DNA of 64,000 nt, taken from Candidatus Atribacteria bacterium UBA6251. Its GTDB lineage: Bacteria > Atribacterota > Phoenicimicrobiia > Phoenicimicrobiales > Phoenicimicrobiaceae. Made by a program: the position numbers and the translations under genes. Every line of letters starts with the position of its first letter. The stretch's first letter is position 1. Positions 16,386 through 61,703 of this stretch are shown here, one piece after another. Location of the stretch: NCBI GenBank assembly GCA_002441285.1, contig DJVR01000064.1, positions 313 to 64,312 of the forward strand, written 5' to 3'. The notes under the pieces are model-generated. The model was not told the origin of the DNA. It did no database searches and saw only the letters and a program-made list of their open reading frames with translations.

Positions 16386-16721
16386 ATGAATAAAGAGAGA
16401 TTAAAAAAATCTATTATATCTTTATACCAAAAAATAGATCCAGAAAGAATAATTCTGTTTGGTTCTTGGTGTAAAGCAGAACAAGATCAATACAGCGATG
16501 TAGACAGGATCATAATTTATGATACTAAAAAGAGGGTTTTAGATAGATTAAAAGAGCTTTACCTTTTATGGAATATCCCCATTGCCTTTGATTTGCTTGC
16601 TTATACCCCACAAGAATTTGAAAAGATGCTGAAAGAAAAAAATCCCTTTATTGAAAGAATAAAAAAAGAAGGAGAGGTTGTCTATGAAAGACTCGGACAA
16701 GAAAGCACTTCGCTGGTTTAA
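16386..16721 (+). CDS. Nucleotidyltransferase-domain protein (MNT-type antitoxin)
   Basis: The LFGSWCKAEQDQYSDVDRIIIY motif (GS...DxD), 111 aa, overlapping the start of a HEPN remnant. Confidence 0.8.
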   Translation: MNKERLKKSIISLYQKIDPERIILFGSWCKAEQDQYSDVDRIIIYDTKKRVLDRLKELYLLWNIPIAFDLLAYTPQEFEKMLKEKNPFIERIKKEGEVVYERLGQESTSLV

Positions 16722-18484: not shown

Positions 18485-20764
18485 CTATTGTTGGCCGATG
18501 GTGATCTTTTCGGTGGGGAAGGCTTTGATGTAAAATTCTAACCAGAAAGATTGAGTGGCTTGTTTATAATTAAAACGAATTTCTCGGCAATGTAAATCTC
18601 TGGTAATACCGATTACACTATTTCTTACTTCCCAATCCTCTAAGTCGATTATACCTTTATAATTAACCTTCCAATTATCGCTCAGTTTAAGATCAAGGGT
18701 AGTATTTATCTCTTTGCTCCACTCTGAGGTATTTAAATTGTAAGAGGTATTAAAATTCATTTTCCAGTCTTCTTTAGGTTTATATGCTAATTTAGCTACC
18801 AGGCTGGCGAAGCTTTCCGCCACAAAATCATAATTAGTAGATAAATTTAAGTCGATTTTTTCAGTAGGAGTAAAAGCCAAAGTCCCTTTGATAAAATGTG
18901 TTAGGGGGTCAATATAATCAAACTTAAAAGGTGTTGGCCCTTCTGTCTTATTATAACTATAGTTCAAAGTAGCGGATAGATAAGGATTATAAGTAGTTTT
19001 TACCTCTATTTTTCCTCCGACTAAATAGCGTGCTTCACCGGTGAGATAGACATCCTGTCGGAAGATACCAGCTGGAGTAATACTGATATTATCTCCAAAT
19101 TTGAAAGGTCTTTTTAAATTAAAAATAAATTCACCACGCCAGTTATCCTCATCTGAGGAATATTCATAAAAATGAGCCACTGAGGTATTAATATCATAAG
19201 AAATCTTGGTTTCTCCCAGAAGGGCAGAGCTTTTTATAAAAGTAAATTCTGGTAAACGATCGATTATTTTGGAAACATTTTCTCCCGTGTAATCATCTTC
19301 ATCCAGGTCAAATCTCTTTTTTGCAACTACATTCACTTTATAGCCTTCGCCCTGAAATTTTAATTCCCACTCTGGAGTGAGCTCCAAATCAGCAAATTCC
19401 TGAGTAGAGGGATGATTTTGGGTAAAATATAGAGTAAGTATAGAATTTAATTGATCACTAATAGTATAGTCATATTTTGCCTTGATATTGCCATTAATAC
19501 CCAGATTATCTAAATCCTTTCCACTAAATTTATATTTTCCGGATAGTTGAAAAGTATAATTTTCTCCGGCTTTATCTAAAGTAAACTGGGAATTCAGGGT
19601 ATTACTGGCTAAAGTTCCATTTGGATTTCTAACCCCGGAATAATTTAAAATCATCTGAGTCGTCAAATCCTGCCCTTTGAATTCCTGCTGATATTTTAAT
19701 TCTCCGTTCAAACTGATCTTATCAGTATCCTTATTCTTAATCTGATAAAGATACAAAGAAGTCTCGCCAGGGTTATTATCTCCTCCAATTTCTAAAGTAT
19801 GAGTAAATCCCAATCCTAATCCCTTCTTCTGTAACCAGTCTGCATAAATGATACCATAAGATTTTTCGGTTATATAATAATTGAAATTAGTCTTTATATA
19901 CCAGCCGTCAGCACTGTTTTGTCCAATCTTAGGGAGGATGGGTTGTTGAGTTTTACGATCTAAAAAGATTATAAAATAGGGAAGGGTAATAATCTTCAAG
20001 TTTCCTTCGTACCAGGAGATATGGCGGGCAATGATTTTATCTTTAGGATAGATAATTAACTCTTTAGCTTCCAGGTGATAATGAGGTTCTGCCAGATCAC
20101 AGGTGGTGAAAGTCCCTCCAGTTATTTCCACTGTCTCCGGGAAGTTTTCCATCTTTTCTCCAGTAAAATAGATCTTCCCCTTTATTCCTTCACCAGTCAA
20201 TTCTCCTTTTAAGCGAATAAGGATTATCTTTTCTGTCTTCCAGTTGTAAGTGACTTCTTCACAATAAGTTTCTGTCTCTTCTTGCTTTAAAAAAACCTCT
20301 CCAGAAGCCCAGAATAAATTTTTATTTAGGTTAATCTTTAATTCCTGACTCTTTATTTCCGTATTATTATATTTTAATTCGACTCCTTCTCGGGCGACAA
20401 TAATATCTTCACCTTCCACCTTTTCATAGGTAATAGATTCTGCCTTTAAGGAAATTTCGTCCTCTGCTTCTTTCCCGGTTTCTTCACTTTTTGCTTCTGC
20501 CTGTTCTTCTCCGAGCTCAATTATTGTCGAGGAAGTTTCAGTTGAAAAGGTATTAGTAGAGGAAATTTCTGGTGATCCGGGGCCTTCTCCTTCTTCAGAG
20601 GCAGGTTCAATATCTGTAGTAGCTGGAGTCTCTTGAGCCCAGGCAGTGGAATCTATTAGCCATTTTCCATTAAAAATAAAGTTTGGTGAGCTTACTCCTA
20701 AAACCGTTGTTAGCACTATTATTAAATAAATTATTAATGGAAATATTTTTTTTGATTTTTGCAT
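18485..20764 (-). CDS. LptD-like outer membrane beta-barrel with N-terminal OstA-like domain
   Basis: 759 aa with a signal peptide and an acidic low-complexity linker. OstA-like segment (ISLKAESITYEKVEGEDIIVAREGVELKYNNTEIKSQELKINL...) followed by a long alternating beta-strand region. Lies adjacent to lptF/G. Confidence 0.6.
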   Translation of the reverse strand: MQKSKKIFPLIIYLIIVLTTVLGVSSPNFIFNGKWLIDSTAWAQETPATTDIEPASEEGEGPGSPEISSTNTFSTETSSTIIELGEEQAEAKSEETGKEAEDEISLKAESITYEKVEGEDIIVAREGVELKYNNTEIKSQELKINLNKNLFWASGEVFLKQEETETYCEEVTYNWKTEKIILIRLKGELTGEGIKGKIYFTGEKMENFPETVEITGGTFTTCDLAEPHYHLEAKELIIYPKDKIIARHISWYEGNLKIITLPYFIIFLDRKTQQPILPKIGQNSADGWYIKTNFNYYITEKSYGIIYADWLQKKGLGLGFTHTLEIGGDNNPGETSLYLYQIKNKDTDKISLNGELKYQQEFKGQDLTTQMILNYSGVRNPNGTLASNTLNSQFTLDKAGENYTFQLSGKYKFSGKDLDNLGINGNIKAKYDYTISDQLNSILTLYFTQNHPSTQEFADLELTPEWELKFQGEGYKVNVVAKKRFDLDEDDYTGENVSKIIDRLPEFTFIKSSALLGETKISYDINTSVAHFYEYSSDEDNWRGEFIFNLKRPFKFGDNISITPAGIFRQDVYLTGEARYLVGGKIEVKTTYNPYLSATLNYSYNKTEGPTPFKFDYIDPLTHFIKGTLAFTPTEKIDLNLSTNYDFVAESFASLVAKLAYKPKEDWKMNFNTSYNLNTSEWSKEINTTLDLKLSDNWKVNYKGIIDLEDWEVRNSVIGITRDLHCREIRFNYKQATQSFWLEFYIKAFPTEKITIGQQ

Positions 20765-24971: not shown

Positions 24972-25553
24972 ATGGATGAACTTAAAATTATTGAGCTTTG
25001 TCTTCTGGGAAAGACCCAATATTTTTCCCGGTTAATTGATAATTATCAACATATGATCTTTAACTTAGCTTATCGGATGAGTAATAATCTCCAAGAAGCG
25101 GAGGATATTGCCCAGGAAACTTTTATTAAAGCCTTTCAGCATCTGAACCATTTTAATCCTAACTATAAATTCTCTACCTGGCTTTACCAGATTGCCTTAA
25201 ATATTATGCGAGATAAATTTAAAAAAAAGGAAATACATCCTTATTCTCTGGACACTCCGAAAGAAGGAGCAGATACAGAATCTTTACCTCCCGAACCAGC
25301 AGACCATACCCATAATCCGGAATGTATTCTAACCCAAAAAGAAGAAACTGAACTAATTCAAAGGGCAATTAATGCCCTCCCTTTAAAATATAAAGAAGTA
25401 ATTATCCTGCGACATATTCAAGACTTATCTTATCTAGAAATTGCCCGTATTCTAAAATTGCCAGAAAGCACAGTAAAAATACGCCTCTTCCGTGCTCGTG
25501 AACAATTGAAGCAAGAGATTGAAAAAGAGGGGAGAGGCTGCTTTTTTGATTAA
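24972..25553 (+). CDS. ECF (group 4) sigma-70 family factor
   Basis: Region 2 (AEDIAQETFIKAF...FSTWLYQIALN) and region 4 (ILRHIQDLSYLEIARILKLPESTVKIRLFRAREQL). Confidence 0.9.
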   Translation: MDELKIIELCLLGKTQYFSRLIDNYQHMIFNLAYRMSNNLQEAEDIAQETFIKAFQHLNHFNPNYKFSTWLYQIALNIMRDKFKKKEIHPYSLDTPKEGADTESLPPEPADHTHNPECILTQKEETELIQRAINALPLKYKEVIILRHIQDLSYLEIARILKLPESTVKIRLFRAREQLKQEIEKEGRGCFFD

Positions 25554-25591: not shown

Positions 25592-25619
25592 TGTAACTTT
25601 TCTCTTAATTTTTCGTAAT
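25592..25619 (+). promoter_or_regulatory. ECF-type promoter candidate (TGTAAC-N16-CGTAAT) upstream of the anti-sigma gene
   Basis: tgtaac (25592-25597), 16-nt spacer, cgtaat (25614-25619). The 12-mer TGTAACTTTTCT is identical to that at 27717. Confidence 0.6.
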
Positions 25620-25715: not shown

Positions 25716-26405
25716 ATGAATACCAGAATGGATTGTATAAAAATTAAAACGCTACTAAATGAATATATAGAACAGCTTACTAATGAGGATTCTACTAATC
25801 AGATAAAAGAGCATCTTCGCTCCTGTCCATCTTGTCAACAGGAATATCAAAGGTTGCAAAAATTAATCTCATCCCTGCGCAGTTTTACTCCTCAGGAAGC
25901 ACCTGCAGACTTCACCGAAAAGGTGATGGCTAAGATTGCTCAAGAAAAAATAGAAATTGATCCTTCTTTCTGGAAGGAAATAAAAAGAAAGATTACGGTA
26001 CCTCTACCTTCTTTGCCTTCTTTGCGGGTTATGGGAGTATCTAGCGCTCTCATTGTTGTATTTTTATTTTTTGCTTTTAATTATCTCTTTAAACCAGTAG
26101 AAATAATCCCTCTCTGTTCAGCGGAAGTAAAGTTTTCTTTGCGGGTAGGGGATAACCAACAGATTCATACCATTGCGATTGCTGGTGATTTCAATAACTG
26201 GGATCCTCAGGCAAATATCTTGCAGGATTCCGATGGTGATGGCATCTGGACAGCTACCTTAAAACTACCTCCCGGTAGATATGAATATATGTTTGTTTTA
26301 AATGGAGAAAAGTGGTTGCCTGATCCCAATGCCCTACGTTACGTCAAAGATGGTTTTGGGAACAGGAATGCTATCTTAGAGGTAAATAATTGTAGCTCAA
26401 CTTAA
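25716..26405 (+). CDS. Anti-sigma factor: zf-HC2 N-terminus, one TM helix, extracytoplasmic CBM48/AMPK-beta-like glycogen-binding domain
   Basis: HLRSCPSCQQEY zinc-finger motif and TM helix VSSALIVVFLFFAFNYLF. C-terminal IAIAGDFNNWDP...GIWTATLKLPPGRYEYMFVLNGEKWLPDPNA is typical of E-set/CBM48 modules. Confidence 0.8.
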   Translation: MNTRMDCIKIKTLLNEYIEQLTNEDSTNQIKEHLRSCPSCQQEYQRLQKLISSLRSFTPQEAPADFTEKVMAKIAQEKIEIDPSFWKEIKRKITVPLPSLPSLRVMGVSSALIVVFLFFAFNYLFKPVEIIPLCSAEVKFSLRVGDNQQIHTIAIAGDFNNWDPQANILQDSDGDGIWTATLKLPPGRYEYMFVLNGEKWLPDPNALRYVKDGFGNRNAILEVNNCSST

Positions 26406-26478: not shown

Positions 26479-27483
26479 ATGACAAAAAAGATCCTTAAAG
26501 CTAACAACACAATAAAATTAACTTTAATAAATTCAATTATTTTAATCATTTTAGTCTCTTTGACTACCACTGTTCTTTCTGCTGCAACAGAAGGAGGAGA
26601 TCCAGTTATTGAACAACAATTAGCACAACTAAAAGATATTTTAGATAATTCCTCCTCTTATAGTGAATTCCAGAAGAATCAGATGCTTCTACCAACTTTG
26701 CAGAAGATCTTAGCCAGTGGTATTTCCTTTGAAGAGACTAATGAAATAGTGGAAAAAGGGGTAAACAATTCCTTTGATGCTTATAATATGAAAAAGATTC
26801 TAGATATCCTTCAGGAGACTAAAGAAGAAGATTTGCCAGTAGAACCCTTGATCAATAAAATAAACGAAGGATTAGCTAAAAATGTAAATAAGACTACCTT
26901 AATTTCAGTAATTTCTAAAAAGGCAGAAAATTTGAAAAAAGCTAATGAAATTTTAAGGGCAGCCGAGCAAGAAGGCTTAAAAATTGAAGATGGTGAGGAA
27001 GTCATCAGGATTATCGGGGATAGTCTGGAAAATGATGTCCCTGCCGAATCTTTATCCTGGCTAATTAAGACCGGATTAAAACAGGGGAAGAGCTTAGAAG
27101 AGATTACCGAAATTAGTGATGAACTGGGATATTTAAGTTTAATGGCTTATGATGCTGGCCTATCTTCTGATAAGATAAATCTCTTATTTAATCAATCCAT
27201 AGAAGGCAGTATATTAGTCGAAGAGATATGCGTAACTATTCAAAAGAATTTAGAAGCAGAAATTGCCTTAAATACTATGGGAGGGAATGGAACCAAACCT
27301 TCCTCTCCTGCCAGTGGAGGAGCAACTTTACCTACCTCACCCACTGAAGCAGTGAGTGGCTTTACTGATATGGGAGGAACACCTGCACAAGAGGCAGGAG
27401 AAGCCCCTACCGAAAGTGGTAGTGCTCCTATACCCTCTGAGCCATCTGAAGAGGAGAGCCCAACTCCACCACCGGAAAACTGA
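26479..27483 (+). CDS. Secreted all-helical protein with Pro/Ser/Thr/Gly-rich C-terminal tail
   Basis: Signal/anchor, repeated helical modules, and a C-terminal low-complexity tail (GTKPSSPASGGATLPTSPTEA...PSEPSEEESPTPPPEN). Confidence 0.6.
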   Translation: MTKKILKANNTIKLTLINSIILIILVSLTTTVLSAATEGGDPVIEQQLAQLKDILDNSSSYSEFQKNQMLLPTLQKILASGISFEETNEIVEKGVNNSFDAYNMKKILDILQETKEEDLPVEPLINKINEGLAKNVNKTTLISVISKKAENLKKANEILRAAEQEGLKIEDGEEVIRIIGDSLENDVPAESLSWLIKTGLKQGKSLEEITEISDELGYLSLMAYDAGLSSDKINLLFNQSIEGSILVEEICVTIQKNLEAEIALNTMGGNGTKPSSPASGGATLPTSPTEAVSGFTDMGGTPAQEAGEAPTESGSAPIPSEPSEEESPTPPPEN

Positions 27484-27716
27484 TTAATGAATGTGATTTT
27501 AATCACTATGTGCTCCTTGACAAAAGAATAACTAAGTCAATATCAGGAAAGATTTTAAATTAAAAACTTATCTTAGCACAAAGATAATTCGCTTATCTGG
27601 TGATCTTATAATAATCTTCTTTAAGCTTAATTAACCAGATACACTGTTTTATGGTTTAACATTGCCTGGTGATTATCTTAACAGCTAAATTAGTTAATCC
27701 ACTAACTAACTAATTA

Positions 27717-27744
27717 TGTAACTTTTCTTGACTTTTCTCGTACT
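27717..27744 (+). promoter_or_regulatory. ECF-type promoter candidate (TGTAAC-N16-CGTACT) upstream of the Cys-rich lipoprotein gene
   Basis: tgtaac (27717-27722), 16-nt spacer, cgtact (27739-27744), with the same TGTAACTTTTCT core as 25592. A sigma70-like alternative overlaps it (TTGACT 27728, 17 nt, TAGTAT 27751). Confidence 0.55.
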
Positions 27745-27870
27745 ATTTATTAGTATTTATTTAGTTACTTAGTTAAATAGTTAAAAATTTAATTAATTTC
27801 TTATATTAGGCAAGTTATCTTTATTTTAACTAATTAGTTAACCAATGACTAATAAATGATTATACAGTGG

Positions 27871-27967
27871 TAGTTTCTTCCCGTGCGAGGTCGACGTGCG
27901 GTAGGATTGCTTATGAAATAAAGCATAAAATAATAACTACTCATAAGCCAAGAGTTTAAAGAAACTA
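27871..27967 (+). ncRNA. Candidate structured 5' leader (three-way junction), class unknown
   Basis: P1: UAGUUUCUU (27871-27879) pairs with AAGAAACUA (27959-27967). P2: CCGUGCG-AGGUCGA-CGUGCGG (27881-27901). P3: GCUUAUGA (27909-27916) pairs with UCAUAAGC (27941-27948). A GC-rich patch in an otherwise very AT-rich spacer, about 90 nt upstream of the ATG at 28054. Confidence 0.45.
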
Positions 27968-28053
27968 TTAAAAAAAAAGAAATTAGATTAGTTAATTTCG
28001 CGAAATTAAATAATTAAAAGATAAATGACCTTAAAAAATGAAAGGAGAAAGAA

Positions 28054-28959
28054 ATGAAGAAACTATTCTTGTTGTTATTAGTTGTAGCCTTAGCCGCCTT
28101 CTTATTTGTCGGCTGTATTCCTGTAACTCCCGGAGAAGGTGAAGGAGAAGGTGAAGGAGAATTAGAAGTAACTATAACATTTGAGAATGAATATACTGAT
28201 GCTAAGGGGGTAACCTTTATACCATGTTCTGGCGAGGTAACAGTTACTTTATCGGCTCCTGTAGCTGTAGATAATGTCGTATATGTTGCATTGAAAGAAG
28301 ATGATGGAGACTATGATTGTTCTGAACCACTTACTCCTAATGCCGATCGGACAGTCTGGACTGGAGATTATACTCCAAACATATGCTCTCCTAGCATTGA
28401 TGAGTGCGAACCGTTCTGTGTAGTCGCCCTAGTCAAACATCCCTGCTGCCCCGGTGAAGAGGTTGCCCTAAAAGTAGTGAGAGCGGATTGCACACCACCT
28501 ACACTTGACCTTTTTGTTAAATTTTCAGATTGTACTGATCCTTGCGTAGATCCAGACCCTTGTGTCGAACCATTTGCGGGTGTATCTATGGAATGGACTA
28601 GCAGAACTACCAGTCTCTGCGAGACTACCGATTGTTGTGCAGATAACTGTTCCGGAGTTGGTGGCTGGAGCCTGGTGATAGATCCAGATGAGTGTGAAGG
28701 CCCATGTGATACTGTAGAAGGAACTGGTTGTCATGTAGAAGGAGAATTAGGGTGTGAATGTTTTGCCTATGCTGACACAGGTGAAGTCTGCTACATCATT
28801 GAATTCACTCTCGAAGATAATGTAGGAAATGCAGTTGAAAGCAAGTGGGAACTTTGCTTAGATACCGATTCCGTGGTTTCATTCTCTATAGTCGATGGAG
28901 ACACATTAACTGCAGATTCTGAAGGTTGGTACACAGTTTACAATGATTGTCAACCTTAA
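28054..28959 (+). CDS. Cysteine-rich acidic lipoprotein (24 Cys), unknown family
   Basis: Lipobox LFVGC followed by a (GE)4 linker. 23 further Cys occur in CxxxC, CC and CxC spacings (DECEPFC, HPCCPG, DCTDPCVDPDPC, DCCADNC, DECEGPC, GCEC). Visibly higher G+C and biased codons, with the strong RBS aaaggagaaag. Confidence 0.8.
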   Translation: MKKLFLLLLVVALAAFLFVGCIPVTPGEGEGEGEGELEVTITFENEYTDAKGVTFIPCSGEVTVTLSAPVAVDNVVYVALKEDDGDYDCSEPLTPNADRTVWTGDYTPNICSPSIDECEPFCVVALVKHPCCPGEEVALKVVRADCTPPTLDLFVKFSDCTDPCVDPDPCVEPFAGVSMEWTSRTTSLCETTDCCADNCSGVGGWSLVIDPDECEGPCDTVEGTGCHVEGELGCECFAYADTGEVCYIIEFTLEDNVGNAVESKWELCLDTDSVVSFSIVDGDTLTADSEGWYTVYNDCQP

Positions 28960-29019: not shown

Positions 29020-29053
29020 ACTAAAGGGATATCCAATAGGGTATCCCTTTAGT
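29020..29053 (+). terminator. Terminator-like hairpin after the Cys-rich lipoprotein gene
   Basis: 12-bp stem ACTAAAGGGATA / TATCCCTTTAGT with a 10-nt loop. There is no clean T-run. Confidence 0.5.
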
Positions 29054-29245: not shown

Positions 29246-30040
29246 ATGCAAAAAAAATTATGGGCTATTTCATTTTTATTAATATTATCGTTAGGTTTAT
29301 TTGCGGGCTGCGCTCCTGGGATTACACCTGAACCAGACGAGCCAGAGCCGGAACCAGAACTACCAACCACTGACAATAGGGTGGTAATGGTAGAATTGTT
29401 TGTTGCACCTGGTTGCAGTAGATGTCCTAGTGCTAAATCAGATATGGCACAGTTATTAGATGAATACGGTCTTGATAAAATAGTAGTTTTAGAAGAATAC
29501 GCCTGGAATTATCCGCTTTCCTCAGGATGGGCCACTCCTGAAACTATTAGTAGATATTCTATGTATACTTCCGATACCGCTACTCCCGATGCTTATTTTA
29601 ATGGTTTAAACCAATCTGTTCATCAGGATGATTCAAGTTATAATAATTATAAAAATGCAATTAACCAGGAATTGGAAAAATTAACACAAATTACCATTAT
29701 AGCTTCAGCGTCTAAAGATAATTCTATTAATTCAATTAACATTTCCGGAAGCATTAAAAATATTGGGATTAACACCTTTTATAATATCGAAATAGGAGCA
29801 ATGATTTACGAAGATTCAGTTCAATTAGGAAATAGTATTGCTAATCATGTAGTTAGAGATATTTTAACCCCTGTTCAGGTAGAAAGTTTATTTTCGGGGG
29901 AAACTTATGATTTTTCCTTTACTTCCAGATCAGAAGATTTAAAATGGGTCAGTAATTTTAATAATTTACATATAGTGGTTTATGTTCAATCTCCCAATAG
30001 TTTGACAAAAGAAATCTTACAAGCTTTGTATGTTGAATAA
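29246..30040 (+). CDS. DUF1223-like thioredoxin-fold CxxC lipoprotein, paralogue 1
   Basis: Lipobox LFAGC. VVMVELFVAPGCSRCPSAKSDM...VVLEEYAW...GW...TPDAYFNG parallels the DUF1223 pattern (VELFTSQGCSSCPPAD...HVDYW..GW...TPQ.VVNG). C-terminus ILQALYVE. Confidence 0.7.
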   Translation: MQKKLWAISFLLILSLGLFAGCAPGITPEPDEPEPEPELPTTDNRVVMVELFVAPGCSRCPSAKSDMAQLLDEYGLDKIVVLEEYAWNYPLSSGWATPETISRYSMYTSDTATPDAYFNGLNQSVHQDDSSYNNYKNAINQELEKLTQITIIASASKDNSINSINISGSIKNIGINTFYNIEIGAMIYEDSVQLGNSIANHVVRDILTPVQVESLFSGETYDFSFTSRSEDLKWVSNFNNLHIVVYVQSPNSLTKEILQALYVE

Positions 30041-30160: not shown

Positions 30161-30943
30161 ATGCTAAAAAAATTTTATTTATTTATAGTGATGGTAATAT
30201 TGATTTATTCTTTTATTGGTTGTTTTTCTACTAATCCTATAGAAGAAACGGAAAGCGATAATGGAGAAATACCGGATTCTATAAAAAGGGTAGTTATGTT
30301 AGAGTTATTTGTAGCTCCAACCTGCAGTCGTTGTCCTTCTGCAAAATTAGCAGCGAAATCTTTATCAAATAAATATGGTCTTGACCAATTAGTAATATTA
30401 GAGGAATATGCTTGGGATGATCCTAATGGTGTATATACTGGCTGGTCAACTTACGAAATTTTTAATAGATTTAAATGGTACAGTAAATCTACTAAGACTC
30501 CTCATGCTTTTTTTAATGGCTTAAATCAAAATATCCCTTATTATGAATTTTCACTTTTTAATTATGAAGAAGCTATTAAAGCAGAATTGAATCGTTCTCC
30601 AAAAGTATCTATTTCAGCTTCTTATGATATTTTTGCACAAAAAATTACTATAAATGGGAAGATATATAATATTAGTTCTGGTAATCTAAACAAAATTGTT
30701 ATTGGAGCAATGATTTACGAAGATTCAGTTCAATTAGGAAATAGTATTGCTAATCATGTAGTTAGAGATATTATTGTTTCTGATACAATTGATATTTTAA
30801 CTGAAGGATCTAATATAACTTTTTATTTAGAGTCAGAAAATTTGAGCAATGTCAAAAATATGGATAATATACATATAGTAGTATATGTGCAAGAACCTTT
30901 TATTGAAAACAAGGAAATACTACAGGCATTGTATATAGAATAA
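30161..30943 (+). CDS. DUF1223-like thioredoxin-fold CxxC lipoprotein, paralogue 2
   Basis: Lipobox FIGC, VVMLELFVAPTCSRCPSAKLA...ILEEYAW, C-terminus ILQALYIE. Shares a 69-nt identical block with paralogue 1. Confidence 0.7.
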   Translation: MLKKFYLFIVMVILIYSFIGCFSTNPIEETESDNGEIPDSIKRVVMLELFVAPTCSRCPSAKLAAKSLSNKYGLDQLVILEEYAWDDPNGVYTGWSTYEIFNRFKWYSKSTKTPHAFFNGLNQNIPYYEFSLFNYEEAIKAELNRSPKVSISASYDIFAQKITINGKIYNISSGNLNKIVIGAMIYEDSVQLGNSIANHVVRDIIVSDTIDILTEGSNITFYLESENLSNVKNMDNIHIVVYVQEPFIENKEILQALYIE

Positions 30944-31346: not shown

Positions 31347-33491
31347 GTGGAGCAAAAAGAAATAATTTCATCTCATATATTTAGCGGAAAATCAATTTAT
31401 ACAAAGGCCATTGAGGTAATAATTATCGCTCTCCTTATTTTAATCCCAATTGCGTTTTACCCTTATTTACTTCGAATATTTAATCCACCTAAAGAACTGA
31501 TTTTTAATTTTTTAGTAATTGCAGGTCTAATGTTCTGGGGATTCAAGATGGTCGATGAAGAAAAAATAAAGGTTATTTCCACTCCTTTAAATCTTCCCAT
31601 TTTTGCCTTTATAATTATTGGTCTTCTCTCCTTACTTTGGTCTAATAGCCCCAAGGTAAGTCTTTTAGAATTACCTCTATTTCTAGTAGGTCCTTTATTA
31701 TTTTTTATAGTTGCTAATAATATTAGTGAAGAACGTCAAATCAATTGTCTGCTTTATACTGCCCTTATAGTTAGTAGCATTCTGGGCGTATATGGTATCC
31801 TGCAATATAATGGTATAGATTTTTACTTCTGGAAGGCTAATATTGGTAGGCATATGGTATTTGGTCTTTTTGGAAATGTCAATTATTTTGCCGAATACCT
31901 GATTGTACCCTTACCCCTTGCTATATCTTTATTCTTTACCACTCGAAACCGCACTAATAAAATTTTACTCCTGATTGGAATATTGACAATGGGAGGAAGT
32001 TTAATTCTTACTTTTACCCGGGGATCTTATCTAGCCATAGGAATTTCATCCTTCTTTATGCTCTTCCTTTATCTGGTCACTCGAGGTAAAGGCTTTATTA
32101 AAGAGCATAAAAAAATCTTTATCTTTATCCTTTCTCTTATCATCTTAGCAACATTTCTCTTTGCTTTGCCTAATCCACTAAATGAACCAGGAACTGTTAT
32201 CTCTAAAATAAAGAGTCGAATTTCTATTTCTCAACTTACTAAAGATACCTCTCTTAAAAGGAGAGAAGCTATTTGGGGATTTACCACCCTGATGATCAAG
32301 GATCACCCTATACTTGGCTCGGGACTGGGAACTTTTAAATATAATTCTTTATCCTATCAAGCAAAATTTTTTAACCTGGGTGAAAATCGCCACCTTTATC
32401 CTTACGGAATTGCCGATAAAGCTCATAATGAATATTTGCAGCTTTGGGCGGAATTAGGGTTAATCGGCTTAGGTATTTTTATCTGGATTATCATTGTATA
32501 TTTCAGGTCTGGAATAAAGTATTTAAAAAGGATAAAAGATAGATATAAACAAGGAATAATAATTGGCTTAATGGGTGGGGTAATAGCCGTATTGATTGAT
32601 GCTATTTTCGGTTTTCCTCTTCATTTACCAGCTACTATTTGTTTATTTTGGTTGAGTCTAGGGGTTACTTTTTCTATTGGTAGAATAGAAACAAAAAGTA
32701 TTGTAAATGTTTTTGGTAAAAAAGAAAAGATAGATATTCCACCGGACAAAAAAGATAATAAAAAAACTAAAAAATCCAAAAATAATTTAAGGGACGATTC
32801 AATTTTCAAGTGGAAGCCACTTTTATACCTTATAATTATTTTATTTTGCACTATTTTAGTAATAATAACCTACAGACCCTTTATAGCTCAAGTTTATGAA
32901 TTTTTAGGAATTCAAGCAGCAGTAAAAAGAGACTATAATACTGCTACTAGCTATTTTCATTTAGCTTTAAAATGGAATCCTTATTTTGGAAATATATACT
33001 ATAATCTTGGACAAATAGTATATCAAAAAGGTATTTATAATAAATCTATAGAATATTTTGAAAAAGCGGAAAAATTTATAGATCATCCTAATTTGCCTTC
33101 GAAATTAGCTTATCTTTATTTGAAGAAGGGTGAGATAGAAAAAGGAATAAGTTATTTAAAAAAAGCAATTTCCTATCAAGAAGATGAAAAAGATACGATT
33201 CCCTTACTTACTGATTTAGGCAATAACTATATGAGATTAAAAAAATATAAACTTGCAGAAGAAGCTTTCAAAGATGCTTTAGATATAAATCCTGATTTTA
33301 TAAATGCCCACTATGGTCTGGCGGGGGCTTATTTAAAACAAAATCTAATAAATAAAGCTCAGATTGAGTTACAAAAAATAATCGAACTTGCTCCGGATAG
33401 TCCAGAAGCTCAATATGCTAGAAATATGTTACAGCAAATAGCTCAAGAAAAACTATCTAAGGAAGAGCAGGAAGAAGAAAAATCTCCTTGA
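31347..33491 (+). CDS. O-antigen ligase/polymerase-like (Wzy_C) membrane protein fused to a C-terminal TPR domain
   Basis: About 11 TM segments and the Wzy_C signature AHNEYLQLWAELGLIGLGIF. Then a Lys-rich linker, a further TM helix and TPR units (NYNTATSYFHLALKWNPYF...). Confidence 0.8.
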   Translation: MEQKEIISSHIFSGKSIYTKAIEVIIIALLILIPIAFYPYLLRIFNPPKELIFNFLVIAGLMFWGFKMVDEEKIKVISTPLNLPIFAFIIIGLLSLLWSNSPKVSLLELPLFLVGPLLFFIVANNISEERQINCLLYTALIVSSILGVYGILQYNGIDFYFWKANIGRHMVFGLFGNVNYFAEYLIVPLPLAISLFFTTRNRTNKILLLIGILTMGGSLILTFTRGSYLAIGISSFFMLFLYLVTRGKGFIKEHKKIFIFILSLIILATFLFALPNPLNEPGTVISKIKSRISISQLTKDTSLKRREAIWGFTTLMIKDHPILGSGLGTFKYNSLSYQAKFFNLGENRHLYPYGIADKAHNEYLQLWAELGLIGLGIFIWIIIVYFRSGIKYLKRIKDRYKQGIIIGLMGGVIAVLIDAIFGFPLHLPATICLFWLSLGVTFSIGRIETKSIVNVFGKKEKIDIPPDKKDNKKTKKSKNNLRDDSIFKWKPLLYLIIILFCTILVIITYRPFIAQVYEFLGIQAAVKRDYNTATSYFHLALKWNPYFGNIYYNLGQIVYQKGIYNKSIEYFEKAEKFIDHPNLPSKLAYLYLKKGEIEKGISYLKKAISYQEDEKDTIPLLTDLGNNYMRLKKYKLAEEAFKDALDINPDFINAHYGLAGAYLKQNLINKAQIELQKIIELAPDSPEAQYARNMLQQIAQEKLSKEEQEEEKSP

Positions 33492-34113: not shown

Positions 34114-36217
34114 ATGAATTTGATGGAAAATGATAAAATAGTTTTGAAGAATAATGAAGAAACAGTATATTTAAAAATAATTGAATTGGTCATTTTAGCA
34201 TTGATTTTCTTGGTACCCCTGGTCTTTTATCCTTATTGTATTACTGTTTTCTTGCCGGCGAAGGAACTTGTAGTAGAATTTTTGACTTTAATTGCTTTGA
34301 TGTTTTGGGGATTACGAATAGTAAGTCTAAAGAGATTTAGTTTTCAATCTTCTCCCCTCAATCTACCCATTTTAAGCTTTATGATGATAGGAATTTTTTC
34401 CCTAATCTGGTCTTCTAGTTTTTTTATTAGCTTAAAAGGACTACTTCTGTTCTTATCTGGACCTTTATTATACTTTGTAGTAATTAATAATATTAAAGAA
34501 GAAAAACAAATTTATCGGTTTCTCAATTTTTTAATATTATTAGGAGGCTTTTTTGGAATATACGGTATTTTACAATATAATGGTATAGATTTTTCTTTCT
34601 GGATTCGCAATATTGGTAGACAACAAGTTTTTGGGCTCTTTGGTAATATTAATTACTTTGCAGAATACTTAATAATTCCTCTTCCAGTGGCAATTGCTTC
34701 TTTCTTTATATTTCGCAATAAATTGTATAAAACTTTTGTATTCTTTTCTATTATAACTATGGGTTTAAGCCTTATCTTTACCTTTACTCGTGGCTCTTAT
34801 CTTGCTTTAGGGGGTTTCCATAAGTGTAATGTTTTTGCTTTTTCTATCCTTGCAAGGTAAAGAATTTTTAAAGAAGAATAGAAAAATATTTATCTTCATT
34901 ATTATATTAATGGTTATTATCTCAATTTTATTTATTGTACCCAATCCCTTAAATCAAACCGGAACAGTTTTATCAAAAATAAAAGGAAGAGTTGCTCTAA
35001 CCCAATTAATTACAGATAATTCTTTAAGGGCAAGATTAGCTACTTGGAAATCTGCCTTAATAATGATTAAAGAAAGACCTTGGTTAGGTTTAGGAATAGG
35101 AACCTTTAAATATAATTCTTTACGCTATATAGCTAAATTTTTAGAACAGGGAGAGAATCGTTCTTTTTATCCTACCCTTGCTTCTACTGAAGCTCACAAT
35201 GAATATTTACAATTTTGGGCAGAAATCGGAATAATCGGTTTATTGATTTTTATTTGGTTTATCATTAGTTATTTTAAATATTGTCTAAAAATGATAAAAA
35301 AGATTAAGGATGAATATGCTCGAGGAATCTTAATAGGTATGATAGGAGTAGCGGTTGCTATGGTAGTGGATTCTATCTTTGGTTTTCCTTTACATTTGCC
35401 TGCCTCGGTTAGCTTGTTCTGGTTAATAATTGCTCTCAGCATAACTTTAATTAGAATAAAAGTTTATGCCCAAGAGAACAAAAAATTTGTAAAAAAGATA
35501 GATAAATCAGGCAAAAAAGATGAAAAAGCACTATTGCTTAGTACAAAAAATTTATTATCTATAGCAATAATCCTTTTTACTGTTTTTTTGAGTACGCTTA
35601 TCATTCGTCCATTTATGGCTCGAACCTATTGGTTTTCGGGAAATAAAGAGTTAAATGCTAAGAGAGTGGATAATGCCATAAAAAATTACCAACAAGCATT
35701 AAGATGGGATCCTTATTTAGGTGAAGTATATTATCAAATAGGCAAAATTTTACAGAATAAAAATTTAAATAATGTTGCCTTACAATATTTTGAAAAAGCA
35801 GAAAAATATGTCGATCATCCTGATTTATCTCAGGATCTTGCCAGGATCTATCCGTTAAATAAATCTTACGATCTAGCTATTTTGAAATTGAAACAAGCGA
35901 TTACCTATCAATCTGATCTGAAATCAATGCTGCCTTTAATGTATCAATTAGGTTCAGTATATATTATCAAAAAAGATTATGATCAAGGCGAAATAATATT
36001 TAAGAAAGCCTTAAATATAGACCCTTCTTATTACAAAGCTAATTATGGATTAGCTACCATCTATCTTAATCAGAATAAAATCGAAGAAGCACTGGTTGAA
36101 TTAAAAAAGGTAATCGAACTTGCCCCGGACAGCCTGGAAGCAAATTATGCCCGGAATATTATGCAACAAATCGCTCAGGAAAAGCTAAAATCCCAACCAA
36201 CGGAAACAGACAACTGA
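34114..36217 (+). pseudogene. Second Wzy_C-TPR paralogue, interrupted by a +1 frameshift in a G5 run
   Basis: The track splits it into 34114..34860 and 34829..36217. Removing one G from GGGGG (34810-34814) restores LALGVSISVMFLLFLSLQGKEF, collinear with LAIGISSFFMLFLYLVTRGKGF of the upstream paralogue. Confidence 0.75.
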
Positions 36218-36427: not shown

Positions 36428-37900
36428 ATGGCAAAAAATATAGAAGGCAAAGAAAAATTGAAAAAACTTTTATATTTCCATAACCCTTGGTGGATAGGCC
36501 ATAGAGTTCCAGACTCCCTCAAGCTAACTTACCGAAGGCCGGTATTAAAAAAGCTCCTCGAGTATTTTAAATTAGATAGGGCTATCCTTATTAAGGGACC
36601 GCGAAGGACAGGGAAGACTACCCTTCTTTACCAAATTATTGATGAATTAATAACTAAAAGAGAAATGCCAGCCCAAAATATAATTTATCTTTCCTGTGAT
36701 GACCCTGAATTAAAATTGCTCACCAGCTCTCCCTCAGATTCACGGATAAACCTGTCTGATATATTAGATGTTTATGAACAGCTAAGAGAAAAAACTATAA
36801 AAGAATTAAAACCCAATGAGAAGATTTATCTTTTTTTAGATGAAGTTCACTTCTGGGAAGGATGGCAGTTTGAAATAAAAAAATATTTTGATAAAAAATA
36901 TCCTCTTAAATTTATATTATCAGGTTCCTCAGCTTCTCTTATCAAGAGAGGGTCTGAATCATTAATGGGCAGGACCATAGAAGAGCTTATATTGCCCTTT
37001 AGTTTTTATGAGTTTTTATCCTGCCAGTTAAAAGATAAAAGATTAGATAAAATTATTCTTAATTTGCAGAAGGATTTTACCCCTTCTAATTTACTTAAAG
37101 GGGTAACCGGTCTTTTTTCGGACAGGGATAGTATATCGCCAATCGACCAGCTGATTCCCTATCAAAATAAAATTAAAATTCTTTTTGCCGAATATCTTAA
37201 TCGGGGAGGATTTCCCCATCTTCTAGAGGTAGAAAATCCTATTCTGTGGCAGAGGCTTCTTCGAGAAGATGTTATTGAAAAAGTTATTTATCGAGACCTG
37301 GTAGACCTTTACGAAATAAAAAAACCGCAGGTTCTGGAAAAATTTTTCCTCTATCTGGCCGGTCACTCTTCTGATATTATGAACATTACTAATATAGCTA
37401 ATTCCCTCTGCCTGAGCAGAGAATATACCCTAAAATATTTAAATTACCTTATCGAATCATTTTTAGTTTTTGGGATAAAAAAGTATTCTCCCTCGGTAGA
37501 AAAGCAGATTCGTAGTAATCAGAAGGTTTATCTTATCGATAGCGGTTTAATTACTGTCTTTGGAGGGGGAAATAACGAGAATAGGGTAGATGGCCAAAAA
37601 GTAGAGAGCTTGGTTGGCAGGTGTTTCTTAAAAGATAAAGTTTTTTATTGGAGGGAAAGAGAAGAAGTTGACTTTGTGCTTGATATAGATGGAGTCGGCA
37701 GTAATTCTCTTCTGCCTGTCGAAGTTAAATATCGTAATACTATTTTGCCAGGAGACCTGAAAGGGATAGTCAAATTTATGGGAAGGTATGGAGTTAGAGA
37801 AGGGGTGGTGGTTAGTAAAGATTTGTTGCAGAAGAGGGAACAGGATGATAAAATATTATGGCTAATCCCCGCCTGGCTAATTTTATTGTTAATAAGTTAA
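36428..37900 (+). CDS. AAA+ ATPase (AAA_14 plus DUF4143 architecture)
   Basis: Walker A GPRRTGKTTLL and Walker B LFLDEVH. The C-terminal VDFVL...PVEVKY block is typical of DUF4143 ATPases. Confidence 0.8.
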   Translation: MAKNIEGKEKLKKLLYFHNPWWIGHRVPDSLKLTYRRPVLKKLLEYFKLDRAILIKGPRRTGKTTLLYQIIDELITKREMPAQNIIYLSCDDPELKLLTSSPSDSRINLSDILDVYEQLREKTIKELKPNEKIYLFLDEVHFWEGWQFEIKKYFDKKYPLKFILSGSSASLIKRGSESLMGRTIEELILPFSFYEFLSCQLKDKRLDKIILNLQKDFTPSNLLKGVTGLFSDRDSISPIDQLIPYQNKIKILFAEYLNRGGFPHLLEVENPILWQRLLREDVIEKVIYRDLVDLYEIKKPQVLEKFFLYLAGHSSDIMNITNIANSLCLSREYTLKYLNYLIESFLVFGIKKYSPSVEKQIRSNQKVYLIDSGLITVFGGGNNENRVDGQKVESLVGRCFLKDKVFYWREREEVDFVLDIDGVGSNSLLPVEVKYRNTILPGDLKGIVKFMGRYGVREGVVVSKDLLQKREQDDKILWLIPAWLILLLIS

Positions 37901-39530: not shown

Positions 39531-39559
39531 TTGACAATTGTTTTACTTATTATTATAAT
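39531..39559 (+). promoter_or_regulatory. Sigma70-type promoter of vapBC with overlapping inverted repeat
   Basis: TTGACA (39531-39536), 17-nt spacer, TATAAT (39554-39559). An ATTGT-N8-ACAAT dyad overlaps the -35 box. Confidence 0.6.
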
Positions 39560-39596
39560 TAAGATGAATAATAGTATAGTAAAAGAAGGTGTAAAA

Positions 39597-39836
39597 ATGA
39601 AGACAATGATAACGATCAGCAGTAAATATCAAATTGTTATTCCTCGAGAGGTAAGGGAAAAATTAGATCTCAAAGCCGGAGACAAGCTAATAATAAAGAC
39701 CAATAAGGAAAAAATAATTATCTACCCCCAACCAAAAAGTTATGCAAAATACGCCTTAGGATTAGGAAAAGAAATTTGGCAAGGTATTGATGCAACTGAA
39801 TATGTGCGAAAGGAAAGGGAAACGTGGAAGACCTAA
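39597..39836 (+). CDS. vapB: AbrB/MazE/SpoVT-family antitoxin (VapB-like)
   Basis: ISSKYQIVIPREVREKLDLKAGDKLII motif. The ATG at 39597 is preferred over the track start at 39531 because of the RBS gaaggtg. Confidence 0.8.
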   Translation: MKTMITISSKYQIVIPREVREKLDLKAGDKLIIKTNKEKIIIYPQPKSYAKYALGLGKEIWQGIDATEYVRKERETWKT

Positions 39837-40258
39837 AAGGAAAGATAGTAGGTCTGGATACTATGGTTTTTATTTATCACTTTGAAGAGAATCAGCTATA
39901 TTCTCCTTTAACTTTTTCTATTTTTGAAAGCTTAGAAAAAGGAAATTTTAATGCCGTTACTTCTATACTTACTTTGTTAGAAATTTTGGTTAAACCCAAA
40001 AGAGAGAACAATTCAATTCTTACTGAAAGATATAAATTATTATTTGAAACCTTCCCTAATTTACAGGTGAAATCTCTTGATGAAAACATCGCCGATATTG
40101 CTTCCAGTTTAAGAGCTAACTATAATATTAATGTTCCCGATGCTATTCAGATAGCTAATTCCTTAGAAGCAAAAGCTGATATATTTATTACCAATGATGC
40201 AACTTTGAAAAAAATAACAGAAATAAAAGTTTTGTTATTAGATGAAATGTTAAAATAG
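39824..40258 (+). CDS. vapC: PIN-domain toxin (VapC-like)
   Basis: GLDTMVFIY (first acidic residue) ... FITNDATL (last Asp). The GTG start overlaps the antitoxin end. Confidence 0.8.
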   Translation: MEDLKGKIVGLDTMVFIYHFEENQLYSPLTFSIFESLEKGNFNAVTSILTLLEILVKPKRENNSILTERYKLLFETFPNLQVKSLDENIADIASSLRANYNINVPDAIQIANSLEAKADIFITNDATLKKITEIKVLLLDEMLK

Positions 40259-44642: not shown

Positions 44643-44789
44643 AATGAGCAGGCTGGTAAGCTAACCAATTAATTAGGGGACTCTTAAATTGGTTGATTAG
44701 TAATTATTGCTTAGCCATTATCGATTAGCAATTGCTGTTTGCCTTTTGCCTTGGTTGATTGATACACCGTATAATTGAAAGGACTCCTT

Positions 44790-61650: not shown

Positions 61651-61703
61651 AATTAGTTAAGAAGTGATGAAATTAATAACGGGGTATGGGGTGGTGCATA
61701 ATC

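Follow-up and report, generated by a model that had tools for sequence, protein, structure and literature searches.

The cysteine-rich lipoprotein gene

The 64-kb stretch of DNA analysed here (contig DJVR01000064.1; hereafter the window) encodes, at 28054..28959 of the forward strand, a cysteine-rich prolipoprotein of 301 amino acids (aa), which is surrounded by a set of conserved non-coding elements (Table 1). The open reading frame (ORF) is a real gene and its product, judged by its sequence, is a lipid-anchored and very acidic envelope protein. The N-terminus has the features expected of lipoproteins: MKK, 16 hydrophobic residues and the lipobox F-V-G-C21, from which acylation at Cys21 and cleavage by signal peptidase II are predicted. 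C21 is followed by IPVTP and then by (GE)5, the codons of which form a perfect repeat (12 nt x 2.5, 28132-28161); the acidic tract, long and of low complexity, begins at +7, behind the Pro-rich segment. The 24 cysteines (positions 21, 58, 89, 111, 118, 122, 131, 132, 146, 160, 164, 170, 189, 194, 195, 199, 214, 218, 226, 234, 236, 246, 268 and 299) are partly clustered: CxxxC at 118/122, 160/164, 195/199 and 214/218; CC at 131/132 and 194/195; CxC at 234/236; and CxxxCxxxxxC at 160/164/170. The mature chain (281 aa) contains 8% cysteine, 58 acidic (D+E) and 9 basic (K+R) residues and 2 histidines, with a pI of ~4.05; the protein has 25 aromatic residues. All this bears out the first-pass annotation, made from the sequence alone, which had described a highly acidic 24-cysteine lipoprotein with few basic residues, a lipobox cysteine followed by a GE linker (IPVTP stands in between), the same cysteine spacings and a strong ribosome-binding site.

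The G+C content of the ORF is 43.4%, compared with 32.7% for the window, and the only comparable large high-G+C gene is that of the SLH porin (9421-11091, 40.8%). The likeness to this porin gene in G+C and codon choice, proposed previously, stands for G+C and, modestly, for NNC codons: the share of NNC in two-fold NNY codons is 0.293 for the cysteine-rich gene (rank 6 of 46) and 0.309 for the porin gene, with a window mean of 0.18 (sd 0.077). It does not extend to G+C at third codon positions (GC3), which is ordinary (0.295), since the excess sits in codon positions 1 and 2. Foreign origin and codon bias were rejected as causes of the high G+C, which is explained by amino-acid composition. No second copy of the gene was found in the window by tblastn.

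Table 1. Features of the cysteine-rich lipoprotein locus and its surroundings (window positions).
Feature	Position	Strand	Basis or remark
ECF-type sigma factor gene	24972..25553	+	Sigma70_r2, Sigma70_r4_2, Sigma70_ECF; syntenic in L001/L002, 68% identity
ECF-type promoter-like motif no. 1, TGTAACTTTTCT-N10-CGTA	25592..25617	+	between sigma and anti-sigma genes
Anti-sigma factor gene, membrane-spanning product	25716..26405	+	Pfam/NCBIfam matches; syntenic in L001/L002
Gene for 334-aa membrane-anchored protein, third of the sigma/anti-sigma group	26479..27483	+	upstream in L001/L002; fragment in L004
ECF-type promoter-like motif no. 2	27717..27742	+	~310 nt 5' of the cysteine-rich ORF
Three-way-junction RNA leader	27870..27968	+	RNAalifold on 50 distinct leaders
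P0 helix	27870-27878/27960-27968	+	leader
P1 helix, invariant loop AGGTCGA	27883-27887/27895-27899	+	leader
P2 helix	27909-27916/27941-27948	+	leader
Palindromic element, core TTAATTTCGCGAAATTAA at 27992-28009	27988..28013	+	unique in window
Shine-Dalgarno sequence AAAGGAG	28041..28047	+	6 nt 5' of ATG; kept in nearly all leaders
Cysteine-rich acidic prolipoprotein, coding sequence	28054..28959	+	ORF, family and model analyses
Signal peptide	28054-28113	+	part of the coding sequence
Lipobox Cys21 codon	28114-28116	+	part of the coding sequence
(GE)5 tether	28132-28161	+	part of the coding sequence
Beta-sandwich D1	~28165-28488	+	part of the coding sequence
Cysteine-rich D2, C-terminal part HYR/Big_13-like	28489-28956	+	part of the coding sequence
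12-bp hairpin AAAGGGATATCC-AATA-GGGTATCCCTTT	29023..29050	+	64 nt past the stop codon; likely terminator
First Omp28/DUF1223-like thioredoxin-fold lipoprotein gene, ELFVAPGCSRCP	29246..30040	+	sub-threshold Omp28, DUF1223 and lipoprot_Omp28 matches
Second Omp28/DUF1223-like thioredoxin-fold lipoprotein gene, ELFVAPTCSRCP	30161..30943	+	sub-threshold matches, synteny
Gene for Wzy_C (O-antigen-ligase-like) + TPR membrane protein	31347..33491	+	Pfam; syntenic in L001, L004/5, L024, L026

A structured leader, a palindrome and a probable terminator hairpin

The non-coding elements around the gene, and their link to the neighbouring extracytoplasmic function (ECF) sigma factor, had not been noted before. 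The gap 5' of the cysteine-rich ORF measures 570 nt, of which ~190 nt were conserved in the upstream alignment of nine loci ascertained through the protein. Within this region the leaders are predicted to fold into a three-way junction, behind which comes the palindrome hairpin. For the junction 98.2% of cells were paired, against 40-51% when the partners were slid, and two-sided changes were found at 10 pairs, against 4.0 +/- 1.1 in shuffles (0 of 500 shuffles reached 10). Most leaders were picked through the exact palindrome that follows the junction, of which the junction statistics are independent. Folding of the window sequence by itself gave the same junction as the structure of minimum free energy, and the frequent G-U pairs indicate a sense-strand RNA. 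A covariance model of the junction scored 77.8 bits at the window leader, its only copy there (next best window match, 18 bits). In the metagenome loci fetched around family relatives (numbered with L, and compared through tblastn of the window proteins), full-scoring leaders preceded the first or only cysteine-rich gene in L001, L004, L006, L020 and L024 and each of the two copies in L003 and L022. The second L004 copy had only a weak partial match (32.5 bits) in front of it, and there was none before the unannotated second L001 copy or in 13 BamA loci. Rfam 15 gave no match at gathering thresholds in the window, and a permissive scan of 27484-28120 gave only unrelated snoRNA models (best E 0.93). 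The leader is a conserved, previously uncatalogued RNA with a structure supported by covariation.

The palindrome TTAATTTCGCGAAATTAA was present in at least 120 metagenome stretches, and the ORF 38-41 nt 3' of it matched the family model in 69 of the 80 loci examined. Its distance from the ATG is 44 nt in the window and mostly 38-41 nt in the metagenome loci. Eight of the 9 leaders ascertained through the protein carried it intact; in the ninth, that of the second L003 copy, one base is deleted from the left arm. Since its helix never varies and shows no covariation, action as RNA and action as DNA are indistinguishable, and the element would act either as a hairpin in the RNA or as a DNA site bound by a protein. 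The sole obvious dimeric DNA-binding candidate in the window is a MarR/TrmB-type winged-helix regulator (44775-45425); that such a protein acts on the palindrome would be pure conjecture.

A near-constant hairpin, AAAGGGATAYC...GRTATCCCTTT, followed the stop codon in 10 of 11 gene copies (it was lacking after the second L003 copy), several with a downstream T run. The window copy has no U-tract, which is why a simple terminator scan called none in this region and the hairpin was found later by folding the downstream sequence; it is likely a terminator.

The same cassette also carries other genes: 9 of 63 cassette ORFs were not cysteine-rich and encoded A/T/V-rich Ig-like lipoproteins ending in D-L-A-G-N, one of them with a He_PIG domain. 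The sharing of leader, signal peptide and terminator by genes with differing cargoes points to a multi-copy cassette (leader, signal peptide, variable cargo, terminator) which is present several times per genome. The second lipoprotein family found on the same leader and signal peptide (L116, L140 and others) comprised nearly Cys-free proteins of 310-460 aa with a conserved TAPxxSxVxIYxD segment and the same C-terminal D-L-A-G-N, for which the one He_PIG match was the only Pfam assignment.

A shared promoter-like motif and the adjacent sigma factor

The pattern TG[TA]AAC-N15-18-CGTA, which resembles the ECF promoters of the Bacillus sigma-W/X type, had exactly two matches on both strands of the window, 5' of the anti-sigma gene and 5' of the cysteine-rich gene, and for the extended motif (TGTAACTTTTCT-N10-CGTA) 0 matches were expected from shuffles. 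It occurred at the same two positions and nowhere else in L001/L002, and TGAAAC-N16-CGTAT was conserved 5' of the first cysteine-rich copy in L001, L002, L004, L005 and L006. The motif shared by the anti-sigma and cysteine-rich genes suggests that the adjacent ECF sigma factor drives the latter; the sigma/anti-sigma pair probably controls the cysteine-rich gene, with a 5' untranslated region (UTR) of ~300 nt.

The anti-sigma factor has an N-terminal zf-HC2 domain with a complete zinc-finger motif (C7, H33-x3-C37-x2-C40; C-x25-H-x3-C-x2-C), an extracytoplasmic CBM48/AMPK1_CBM-like domain at its C-terminus and a weak match to the RsrA family. For the 334-aa protein encoded next to it no family scored above the cut-off. 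Just 3' of the second motif, within the presumed 5' UTR, lies an 8-nt tandem repeat (TTAATTAG x 4.9, 27757-27795); TTAGTTA/TAACTAA-rich sequence like it was also seen in related loci.

Family, host and conservation

The profile check proposed in the first-pass annotation gave no Pfam or NCBIfam family for the cysteine-rich protein at E <= 0.1, and a sequence search of the PDB gave no match at E <= 10. The earlier statement that no family could be recognised holds for these curated libraries; a sizeable uncharacterised metagenomic family does exist. A word-indexed search returned 296 relatives at E <= 0.01 (among the matches listed, 300-330 aa and, for the closest non-self one, 69% identity), and an exhaustive profile search at E <= 1e-3 returned 285 cluster representatives, with 64 reaching <= 1e-30. 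Nearly all were unnamed metagenome proteins. One relative, MDD4289634.1, comes from an Atribacterota metagenome-assembled genome (MAG), and two other named relatives were on short contigs binned, doubtfully in our opinion, as Marinimicrobia and Caldisericota. Because of this Atribacterota member, and because the BamA of the window (4185-5936) was 60-75% identical to that of 13 Atribacterota MAGs and single-cell genomes, the host was assigned to Atribacterota; the family is an unnamed and apparently Atribacterota-restricted group of envelope lipoproteins.

A lipobox was found in 92% of 120 relatives, together with a near-identical signal peptide (MKKLLLVLxVVAxASFLxVGC). The tether after the lipobox cysteine was always of acidic or Pro-rich low complexity: (GE)n, (DG)n, (PD)n, Dn or En. 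The median pairwise nucleotide identity was 0.81 for the leader and 0.81 for the signal-peptide codons, but only 0.53 for the mature part, in which hypervariable, indel-rich segments (aa 81-90, 101-120, 241-250 and 281-290) alternate with a conserved core that includes FCVVALVKHPCCPGEEVALK and TTDCCxDxCS.

Paralogues in tandem or nearby were present in L001, L003, L004 and L022, tandem arrangement being common, and all copies seen were co-oriented. Other cysteine-rich copies (L003/L022, L020) were at loci without the Omp28-like neighbours. Downstream of the annotated gene in L001 (8721-9482; also L002, 11560-12321) there is a second cysteine-rich remnant (52% identity over aa 15-241), without a leader and, in L001, overlapped only at its end by a 39-aa ORF (9553-9672) and otherwise without a called gene; it may be a pseudogene.

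Most family contigs measured 1-3 kb, and the palindrome lay <=130 nt from a contig end in 27 of 69 whole contigs, against 8.2 expected. Plausibly, the cassette repeat breaks assemblies, and this would explain the absence of the family from binned reference genomes.

Five variants (P0111-P0113, P0116, P0120) had no lipobox and carried instead a duplicated PDG.(V/I)DFEDLMIFA segment of dockerin-like look; a dockerin assignment for these N-termini (P0112, P0120) was dropped, with no Pfam match and a resemblance only. One related locus encodes a Cohesin-domain protein (L006, 10567-11088). These sequences hint at cohesin-dockerin anchoring of the same module in the lipobox-less variants.

Predicted fold

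Structure prediction, suggested earlier together with an analysis of the disulfide pattern, gave a confident all-beta model of tandem Ig-like modules; disulfide pairing was addressed through the co-variation of cysteines across relatives (see below). The AlphaFold2 model, from a 120-sequence alignment, had a mean predicted local distance difference test (pLDDT) of 91.4 and a predicted template-modelling score (pTM) of 0.82, with ~20 strands and no real helices. Foldseek searches with the full model against the PDB and BFVD returned tandem Ig, FnIII, complement-MG, SiiE and Deinococcus HPI surface-layer (S-layer) structures only, with scores typical of generic fold matches (E ~1e-3 to 1e-5, TMq <= 0.41). 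The cysteine-rich C-terminal half modelled alone (aa 146-301) reached a pLDDT of 88.6 and had no PDB match at E <= 1e-3.

Profile positions ~246-298, with an invariant D-N-V-G-N, matched 7-22 repeated stretches in giant proteins, the repeats of which Pfam calls Big_13, HYR or Glucodextran_B, and the complete module was also found as the C-terminal part of He_PIG-repeat proteins. Fold and profile matches together argue for a cell-surface-type Ig-like module rather than an enzyme fold.

Cysteine pairing

Cysteine presence and absence were scored across 170 aligned relatives. Several pairs of positions co-varied strongly (phi): 189-214 (1.00), 218-236 (0.97), 246-268 (0.93-0.95), 122-132 (0.90) and 58-146 (0.87), as did two clade-specific pairs, 81-119 (0.97) and 221-230 (0.95). 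Such gain and loss in twos points to disulfides rather than to multi-ligand metal sites, and the extra cysteines behave like disulfide pairs, of which ~11 would be intramolecular.

The number of non-lipobox cysteines was odd in 96 of 105 relatives with C170 and even in 39 of 49 without it, so one cysteine would have no intramolecular partner in the main clade. C170 lies in a Pro/Asp-rich loop modelled with lower confidence (D-C160-xDP-C164-xxPDP-C170); as a speculation, it could be a free thiol or form an intermolecular bond.

None of the 24 cysteines shows CxxC, CxxCH or Fe-S cluster spacing, and the lack of CxxC excludes a haem, Fe-S or thioredoxin-like site in this protein. Metallothioneins are small, with 15-30% cysteine in CxC/CC/CxxC clusters, few or no aromatic residues and little regular secondary structure in the absence of metal; a metallothionein-like protein was likewise discarded, given 281 mature residues, 8% cysteine, 25 aromatic residues and a confident all-beta model.

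Neighbouring genes

The cysteine-rich protein had been described as flanked by thioredoxin-fold CxxC lipoproteins. Two such genes exist, both downstream and none on the other side. They scored below curated cut-offs and are for this reason called Omp28/DUF1223-like: in bits, for the first and second neighbour, 26.9 and 27.2 for Omp28 (cut-off 34.9), 25.2 and 15.1 for DUF1223 (30.7), and 47.7 and 30.1 for NF033782 (150). The Omp28/DUF1223 family also includes selenoprotein relatives. The CxxC of both neighbours is placed as in the thioredoxin-fold active site, where it opens helix 1 behind a beta-strand, and weak matches to 2axo and 1fo5 were obtained; DUF1223 has a thioredoxin fold (PMC3091736).

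An Omp28-like gene was found directly 3' of the cysteine-rich gene in the window, L001, L004/5, L006, L024/25 and L026 (L002 ends earlier). The adjacent paralogues retained (V/L)(V/L)ELFVAPxCxxCP in all six locus types, most with a lipobox, and more divergent CxxC motifs (ELFVQEGCxTCP or VEAYIAPGCSRC) were seen in distant copies and in L026. To the question, raised in the first-pass annotation, of whether orthologues always neighbour DUF1223-like genes, the answer is yes for the main locus and no for the extra paralogues elsewhere. The recurring order was sigma factor, anti-sigma factor, 334-aa protein, cysteine-rich gene (1-2 copies), Omp28/DUF1223-like gene(s), a 166-aa protein and Wzy_C-TPR, found whole or in part in L001/L002, L004/L005, L006, L024/L025 and L026, with relatives 39% to 65% identical. 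Wzy_C enzymes include protein O-oligosaccharyltransferases, and glycosylation of Thr/Ser-rich lipoproteins via the syntenic Wzy_C protein is conceivable.

The window as a whole is an outer-membrane biogenesis region: TamB, BamA, Skp/OmpH, a FabZ-like protein, an LptB-like ABC ATPase, the SLH-domain porin, LptC, LptA, LptF/G, two Wzy_C+TPR proteins, Wzz and sugar-nucleotide enzymes. The second Wzy_C + TPR gene (34114-36217) is apparently split or overlapping (34114-34860/34829-36217). A 759-aa ORF beside lptF/G (18485-20764, reverse strand) had no Pfam match, and the syntenic L002 gene (718 aa) had a faint LptD match; its product is probably a divergent LptD.

Other genes were also observed in or near these loci. 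A caspase-like Peptidase_C14 gene encoding 14 cysteines (12453-13688, reverse strand) and a clostripain-like Peptidase_C11 gene (14514-15746, forward strand) lie near the outer-membrane cluster, and both domains are fused in a 971-aa protein encoded a few kb from the family gene in L006 (5818-8733). Small genes for 23S_rRNA_IVP/bAvd-like four-helix bundles are nearby in L001 (12414-12605) and L024 (7144-7563); no reverse transcriptase was seen near them, and a diversity-generating retroelement is not indicated. The accessory genes interspersed in the envelope cluster (39531-40258; 16386-16721; 36428-37900; 61686-62441) include a MazE/PIN toxin-antitoxin pair, a Polbeta-type nucleotidyltransferase, an AAA_14/DUF4143 ATPase and a PRiA4_ORF3-like protein. 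A recombinase near the cysteine-rich locus was considered and rejected, none of the window ORFs scanned having an integrase or recombinase domain.

Proposed function and alternatives

The paired cysteines, the Ig-like model, the variable mature part and the syntenic CxxC lipoproteins are best explained by an abundant, variable, disulfide-braced, non-enzymatic lipoprotein that would coat the surface of the outer envelope or form an adhesion layer there, a reading to which we give a probability of roughly 55%; its location, disulfides and expression level are all inferred. Among the roles originally suggested, it corresponds most closely to the disulfide-knotted surface-layer component, whereas the metal-binding protein and the redox buffer were left without positive support. 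The gene would be transcribed as a monocistronic unit from the ECF-type promoter, under the adjacent sigma/anti-sigma pair, and its mRNA would carry the ~300-nt 5' UTR with the covariation-supported three-way junction, the invariant palindromic hairpin and the strong ribosome-binding site. The product would be exported through the family-invariant lipoprotein signal peptide (Sec/Lgt/Lsp) and acylated at Cys21, and the variable acidic low-complexity tether, here (GE)5, would keep it away from the membrane. Its body would consist of two rigid Ig-like beta-sandwich modules, as in the AlphaFold model, cross-braced by the ~11 intramolecular disulfides, for which the two downstream CxxC lipoproteins would be the likely oxidase or isomerase; C170, partnerless within the molecule in the main clade, could provide an intermolecular link. 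The protein would be one of several Ig-like cargoes carried by the same leader/signal-peptide/terminator cassette, with several copies per genome.

Several observations weigh against parts of this reading. A sigma-70-like promoter (TTGACT-17-TAGTAT, 27728-27756) overlaps the second ECF-type motif, and at other loci the paralogues have the leader without this motif. The signs of high expression claimed in the first-pass annotation are suggestive only: to the ribosome-binding site can be added the promoter-like motif, the structured leader, the terminator hairpin and a mild NNC bias, but the codon bias is no more than mild and GC3 is ordinary. The first residue of the acidic tract is at +7 and not at +2 to +6, the position of the Bacteroidetes surface-export signal, and surface exposure is therefore argued mainly from the pattern of variability and from analogy. 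About 11 cysteines are nearly invariant, so that covariation assigns no pairing to them. A scan of GTDB species representatives with a single pattern, the most conserved peptide of the family (HPCC[PA]G[ED]E), matched 54 stretches, among which there was no relative. Finally, Atribacterota live as strict anaerobes in reduced sediments (PMC7736352), a setting in which it is not obvious how disulfides outside the cytoplasm would stay stable or which electron sink would serve their formation.

A more far-reaching version of the surface-coat proposal, which we put forward as possible though doubtful, is an undescribed coat system, dedicated to this role in Atribacterota, in which the new structured RNA and the invariant 18-nt palindrome would control a multi-copy set of interchangeable Ig-like cargo genes, with a master copy wired to the envelope ECF sigma/anti-sigma pair. 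The dominant cargo, with its ~11 disulfides in a strictly anaerobic fermenter, would then imply a so far undescribed pathway of oxidative folding outside the cytoplasm, based on the Omp28/DUF1223-like CxxC lipoproteins; the palindrome might even be a recombination or gene-conversion site at which cargoes are swapped, so that the coat would vary in the face of phages or grazers.

The alternative that survives best, though an unlikely one, is a structural lipoprotein facing the periplasm, for example a spacer or tether of the outer membrane or the peptidoglycan, of fixed length and made rigid by its disulfides. Lipoproteins of diderm bacteria mostly face the periplasm, and the gene is part of a cluster for outer-membrane biogenesis, beside the SLH-porin tethering system. 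The place of the acidic tract, away from that of the Bacteroidetes lipoprotein export signal (LES; PMC5080379), and the multilayered envelope of Atribacter laminatus, with its thin intermediate layer (PMC7736352), would also suit a spacer. Housekeeping spacers are usually conserved, however, and here a conserved leader and signal peptide precede a mature part of high variability and with loops rich in indels; there are several paralogues per genome, and the same module was seen in He_PIG adhesin-like proteins and in lipobox-less variants with a duplicated Ca-loop (dockerin-like) N-terminus.

Less likely again is a thiolate surface protein that binds or sequesters metal, in which the cysteines would be kept reduced by a sulfidic habitat and, helped by the acidic surface, would coordinate thiophilic metals such as Zn, Ni, Cu, Fe or Cd. 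The cysteine content (8%), the CC, CxC and CxxxC clusters and the strongly acidic composition fit such a protein, an odd number of cysteines is compatible with metal sites, and the habitat is reducing (PMC7736352). Against it, cysteines were gained and lost in twos and not in sets of 3 or 4 ligands; CxxC, CxxCH and Fe-S spacings are missing, with only 2 histidines and as many as 25 aromatic residues; the rigid beta-sandwich modelled with confidence does not resemble a metallothionein; and the conserved neighbours resemble thiol-disulfide oxidoreductases, not metal transporters or chaperones.

Least probable of all is a redox-active reservoir or relay of thiols and disulfides in the envelope, which would work with the CxxC lipoproteins to buffer or sense oxidative or disulfide stress under the control of the zinc-finger (ZAS-type) anti-sigma factor, since most ZAS anti-sigma factors are not redox sensors, and since the full zinc-finger motif and weak RsrA-family match of the anti-sigma factor, the ECF-type promoter common to its gene and the cysteine-rich gene, the syntenic CxxC partners and the one unpaired cysteine of the main clade have to be set against the extracytoplasmic CBM48-like domain on the same anti-sigma factor, the Cys-poor Ig-like lipoproteins on the same cassette and a precisely conserved Ig-like fold with hypervariable loops that a buffer would not need.

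If the surface-coat reading is right, ~11 disulfides would have to be formed and maintained outside the cytoplasm by a fermentative strict anaerobe, a task for which the conserved Omp28/DUF1223-like CxxC lipoproteins are the candidates. Few bacteria of anoxic subsurface sediments are as abundant as Atribacterota, with only one isolate described and an unusual envelope that is essentially uncharacterised at the protein level (PMC7736352). In that isolate, A. laminatus, a lipoprotein of unknown function, RT761_00907, is highly expressed, at rank 11 of the transcriptome (PMC7736352); no published link between any Atribacterota lipoprotein and this family was found. The locus offers a concrete candidate for a major Atribacterota envelope protein family, an explanation in the cassette for the near-invisibility of that family in binned genomes, and two leads: a new structured RNA leader motif and a tie, at the level of the promoter, to one particular ECF sigma factor.

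Comparison with known systems

In gene-family architecture, the closest known likeness is to the Vpma proteins of Mycoplasma agalactiae and the Vsp proteins of M. bovis. There as here, a conserved 5' UTR and signal-peptide region precedes divergent mature parts (PMC2268961), a short conserved element lies within ~70 nt of the start codon (in Vpma/Vsp a recombination site at <=72 nt; PMC2268961) and the promoter is found at one locus type only. The pattern of such multigene families is present in the nucleotide identities (0.81 and 0.81 for leader and signal-peptide codons vs. 0.53 for the mature part), in the paralogues and in the other cargoes on the cassette. In contrast to Vpma/Vsp, no recombinase was found among the window ORFs scanned and all copies seen were co-oriented; the host is diderm, the mature part is a folded cysteine-rich Ig-like domain instead of repeats, and the leader is an RNA structure supported by covariation.

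Chlamydial OmcA (a lipoprotein) and OmcB are also cysteine-rich envelope proteins, one of them lipid-anchored, and are thought to stiffen the Chlamydia envelope through disulfide cross-links. The likeness is chemical only: there is no sequence relationship, the cysteine-rich protein had no Pfam match to Chlam_OMP3/OMP6 or to DUF11 repeats, and the host is a free-living anaerobe. Intermolecular cross-linking via the unpaired cysteine, by analogy with OmcA/OmcB, is purely hypothetical.

The LES lipoproteins of Bacteroidetes have an acidic run soon after the acylated cysteine (consensus C-X-K-(D/E)2-X or SDDDD), the position of which is critical in Capnocytophaga (PMC5080379). Acidic character in this region is kept across the cysteine-rich family too, but in the protein of the window the tract is long, of low complexity and placed at ~+7, after the Pro-rich segment.

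The ompA leader of Escherichia coli is an example of a stabilising or regulatory 5' UTR on the mRNA of a major outer-membrane protein. Like leaders of this type, the one described here is long and structured, with stem-loops and a strong ribosome-binding site, on what would be a monocistronic mRNA for an envelope protein; unlike them, it contains a three-way junction, invariant loop and junction nucleotides and an invariant palindrome, and belongs to no Rfam family.

By fold, the closest known system is that of the HYR/Big_13/Glucodextran_B Ig domains (PF02494, PF19077, PF09136; also PF23237, HYR_4C), which are all-beta sandwiches as predicted here; the C-terminal D-N-V-G-N profile segment matched repeats of giant proteins that carry such domains. 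The cysteine-rich protein differs from them in falling below Pfam thresholds, in its ~11 putative disulfides per 280 residues and in its lipid anchor with an acidic tether. A probable Ig-like surface lipoprotein is the known part of the system; the new parts are its richness in putative disulfides in a strict anaerobe, a cassette with an uncatalogued RNA and a likely link to an ECF sigma factor.

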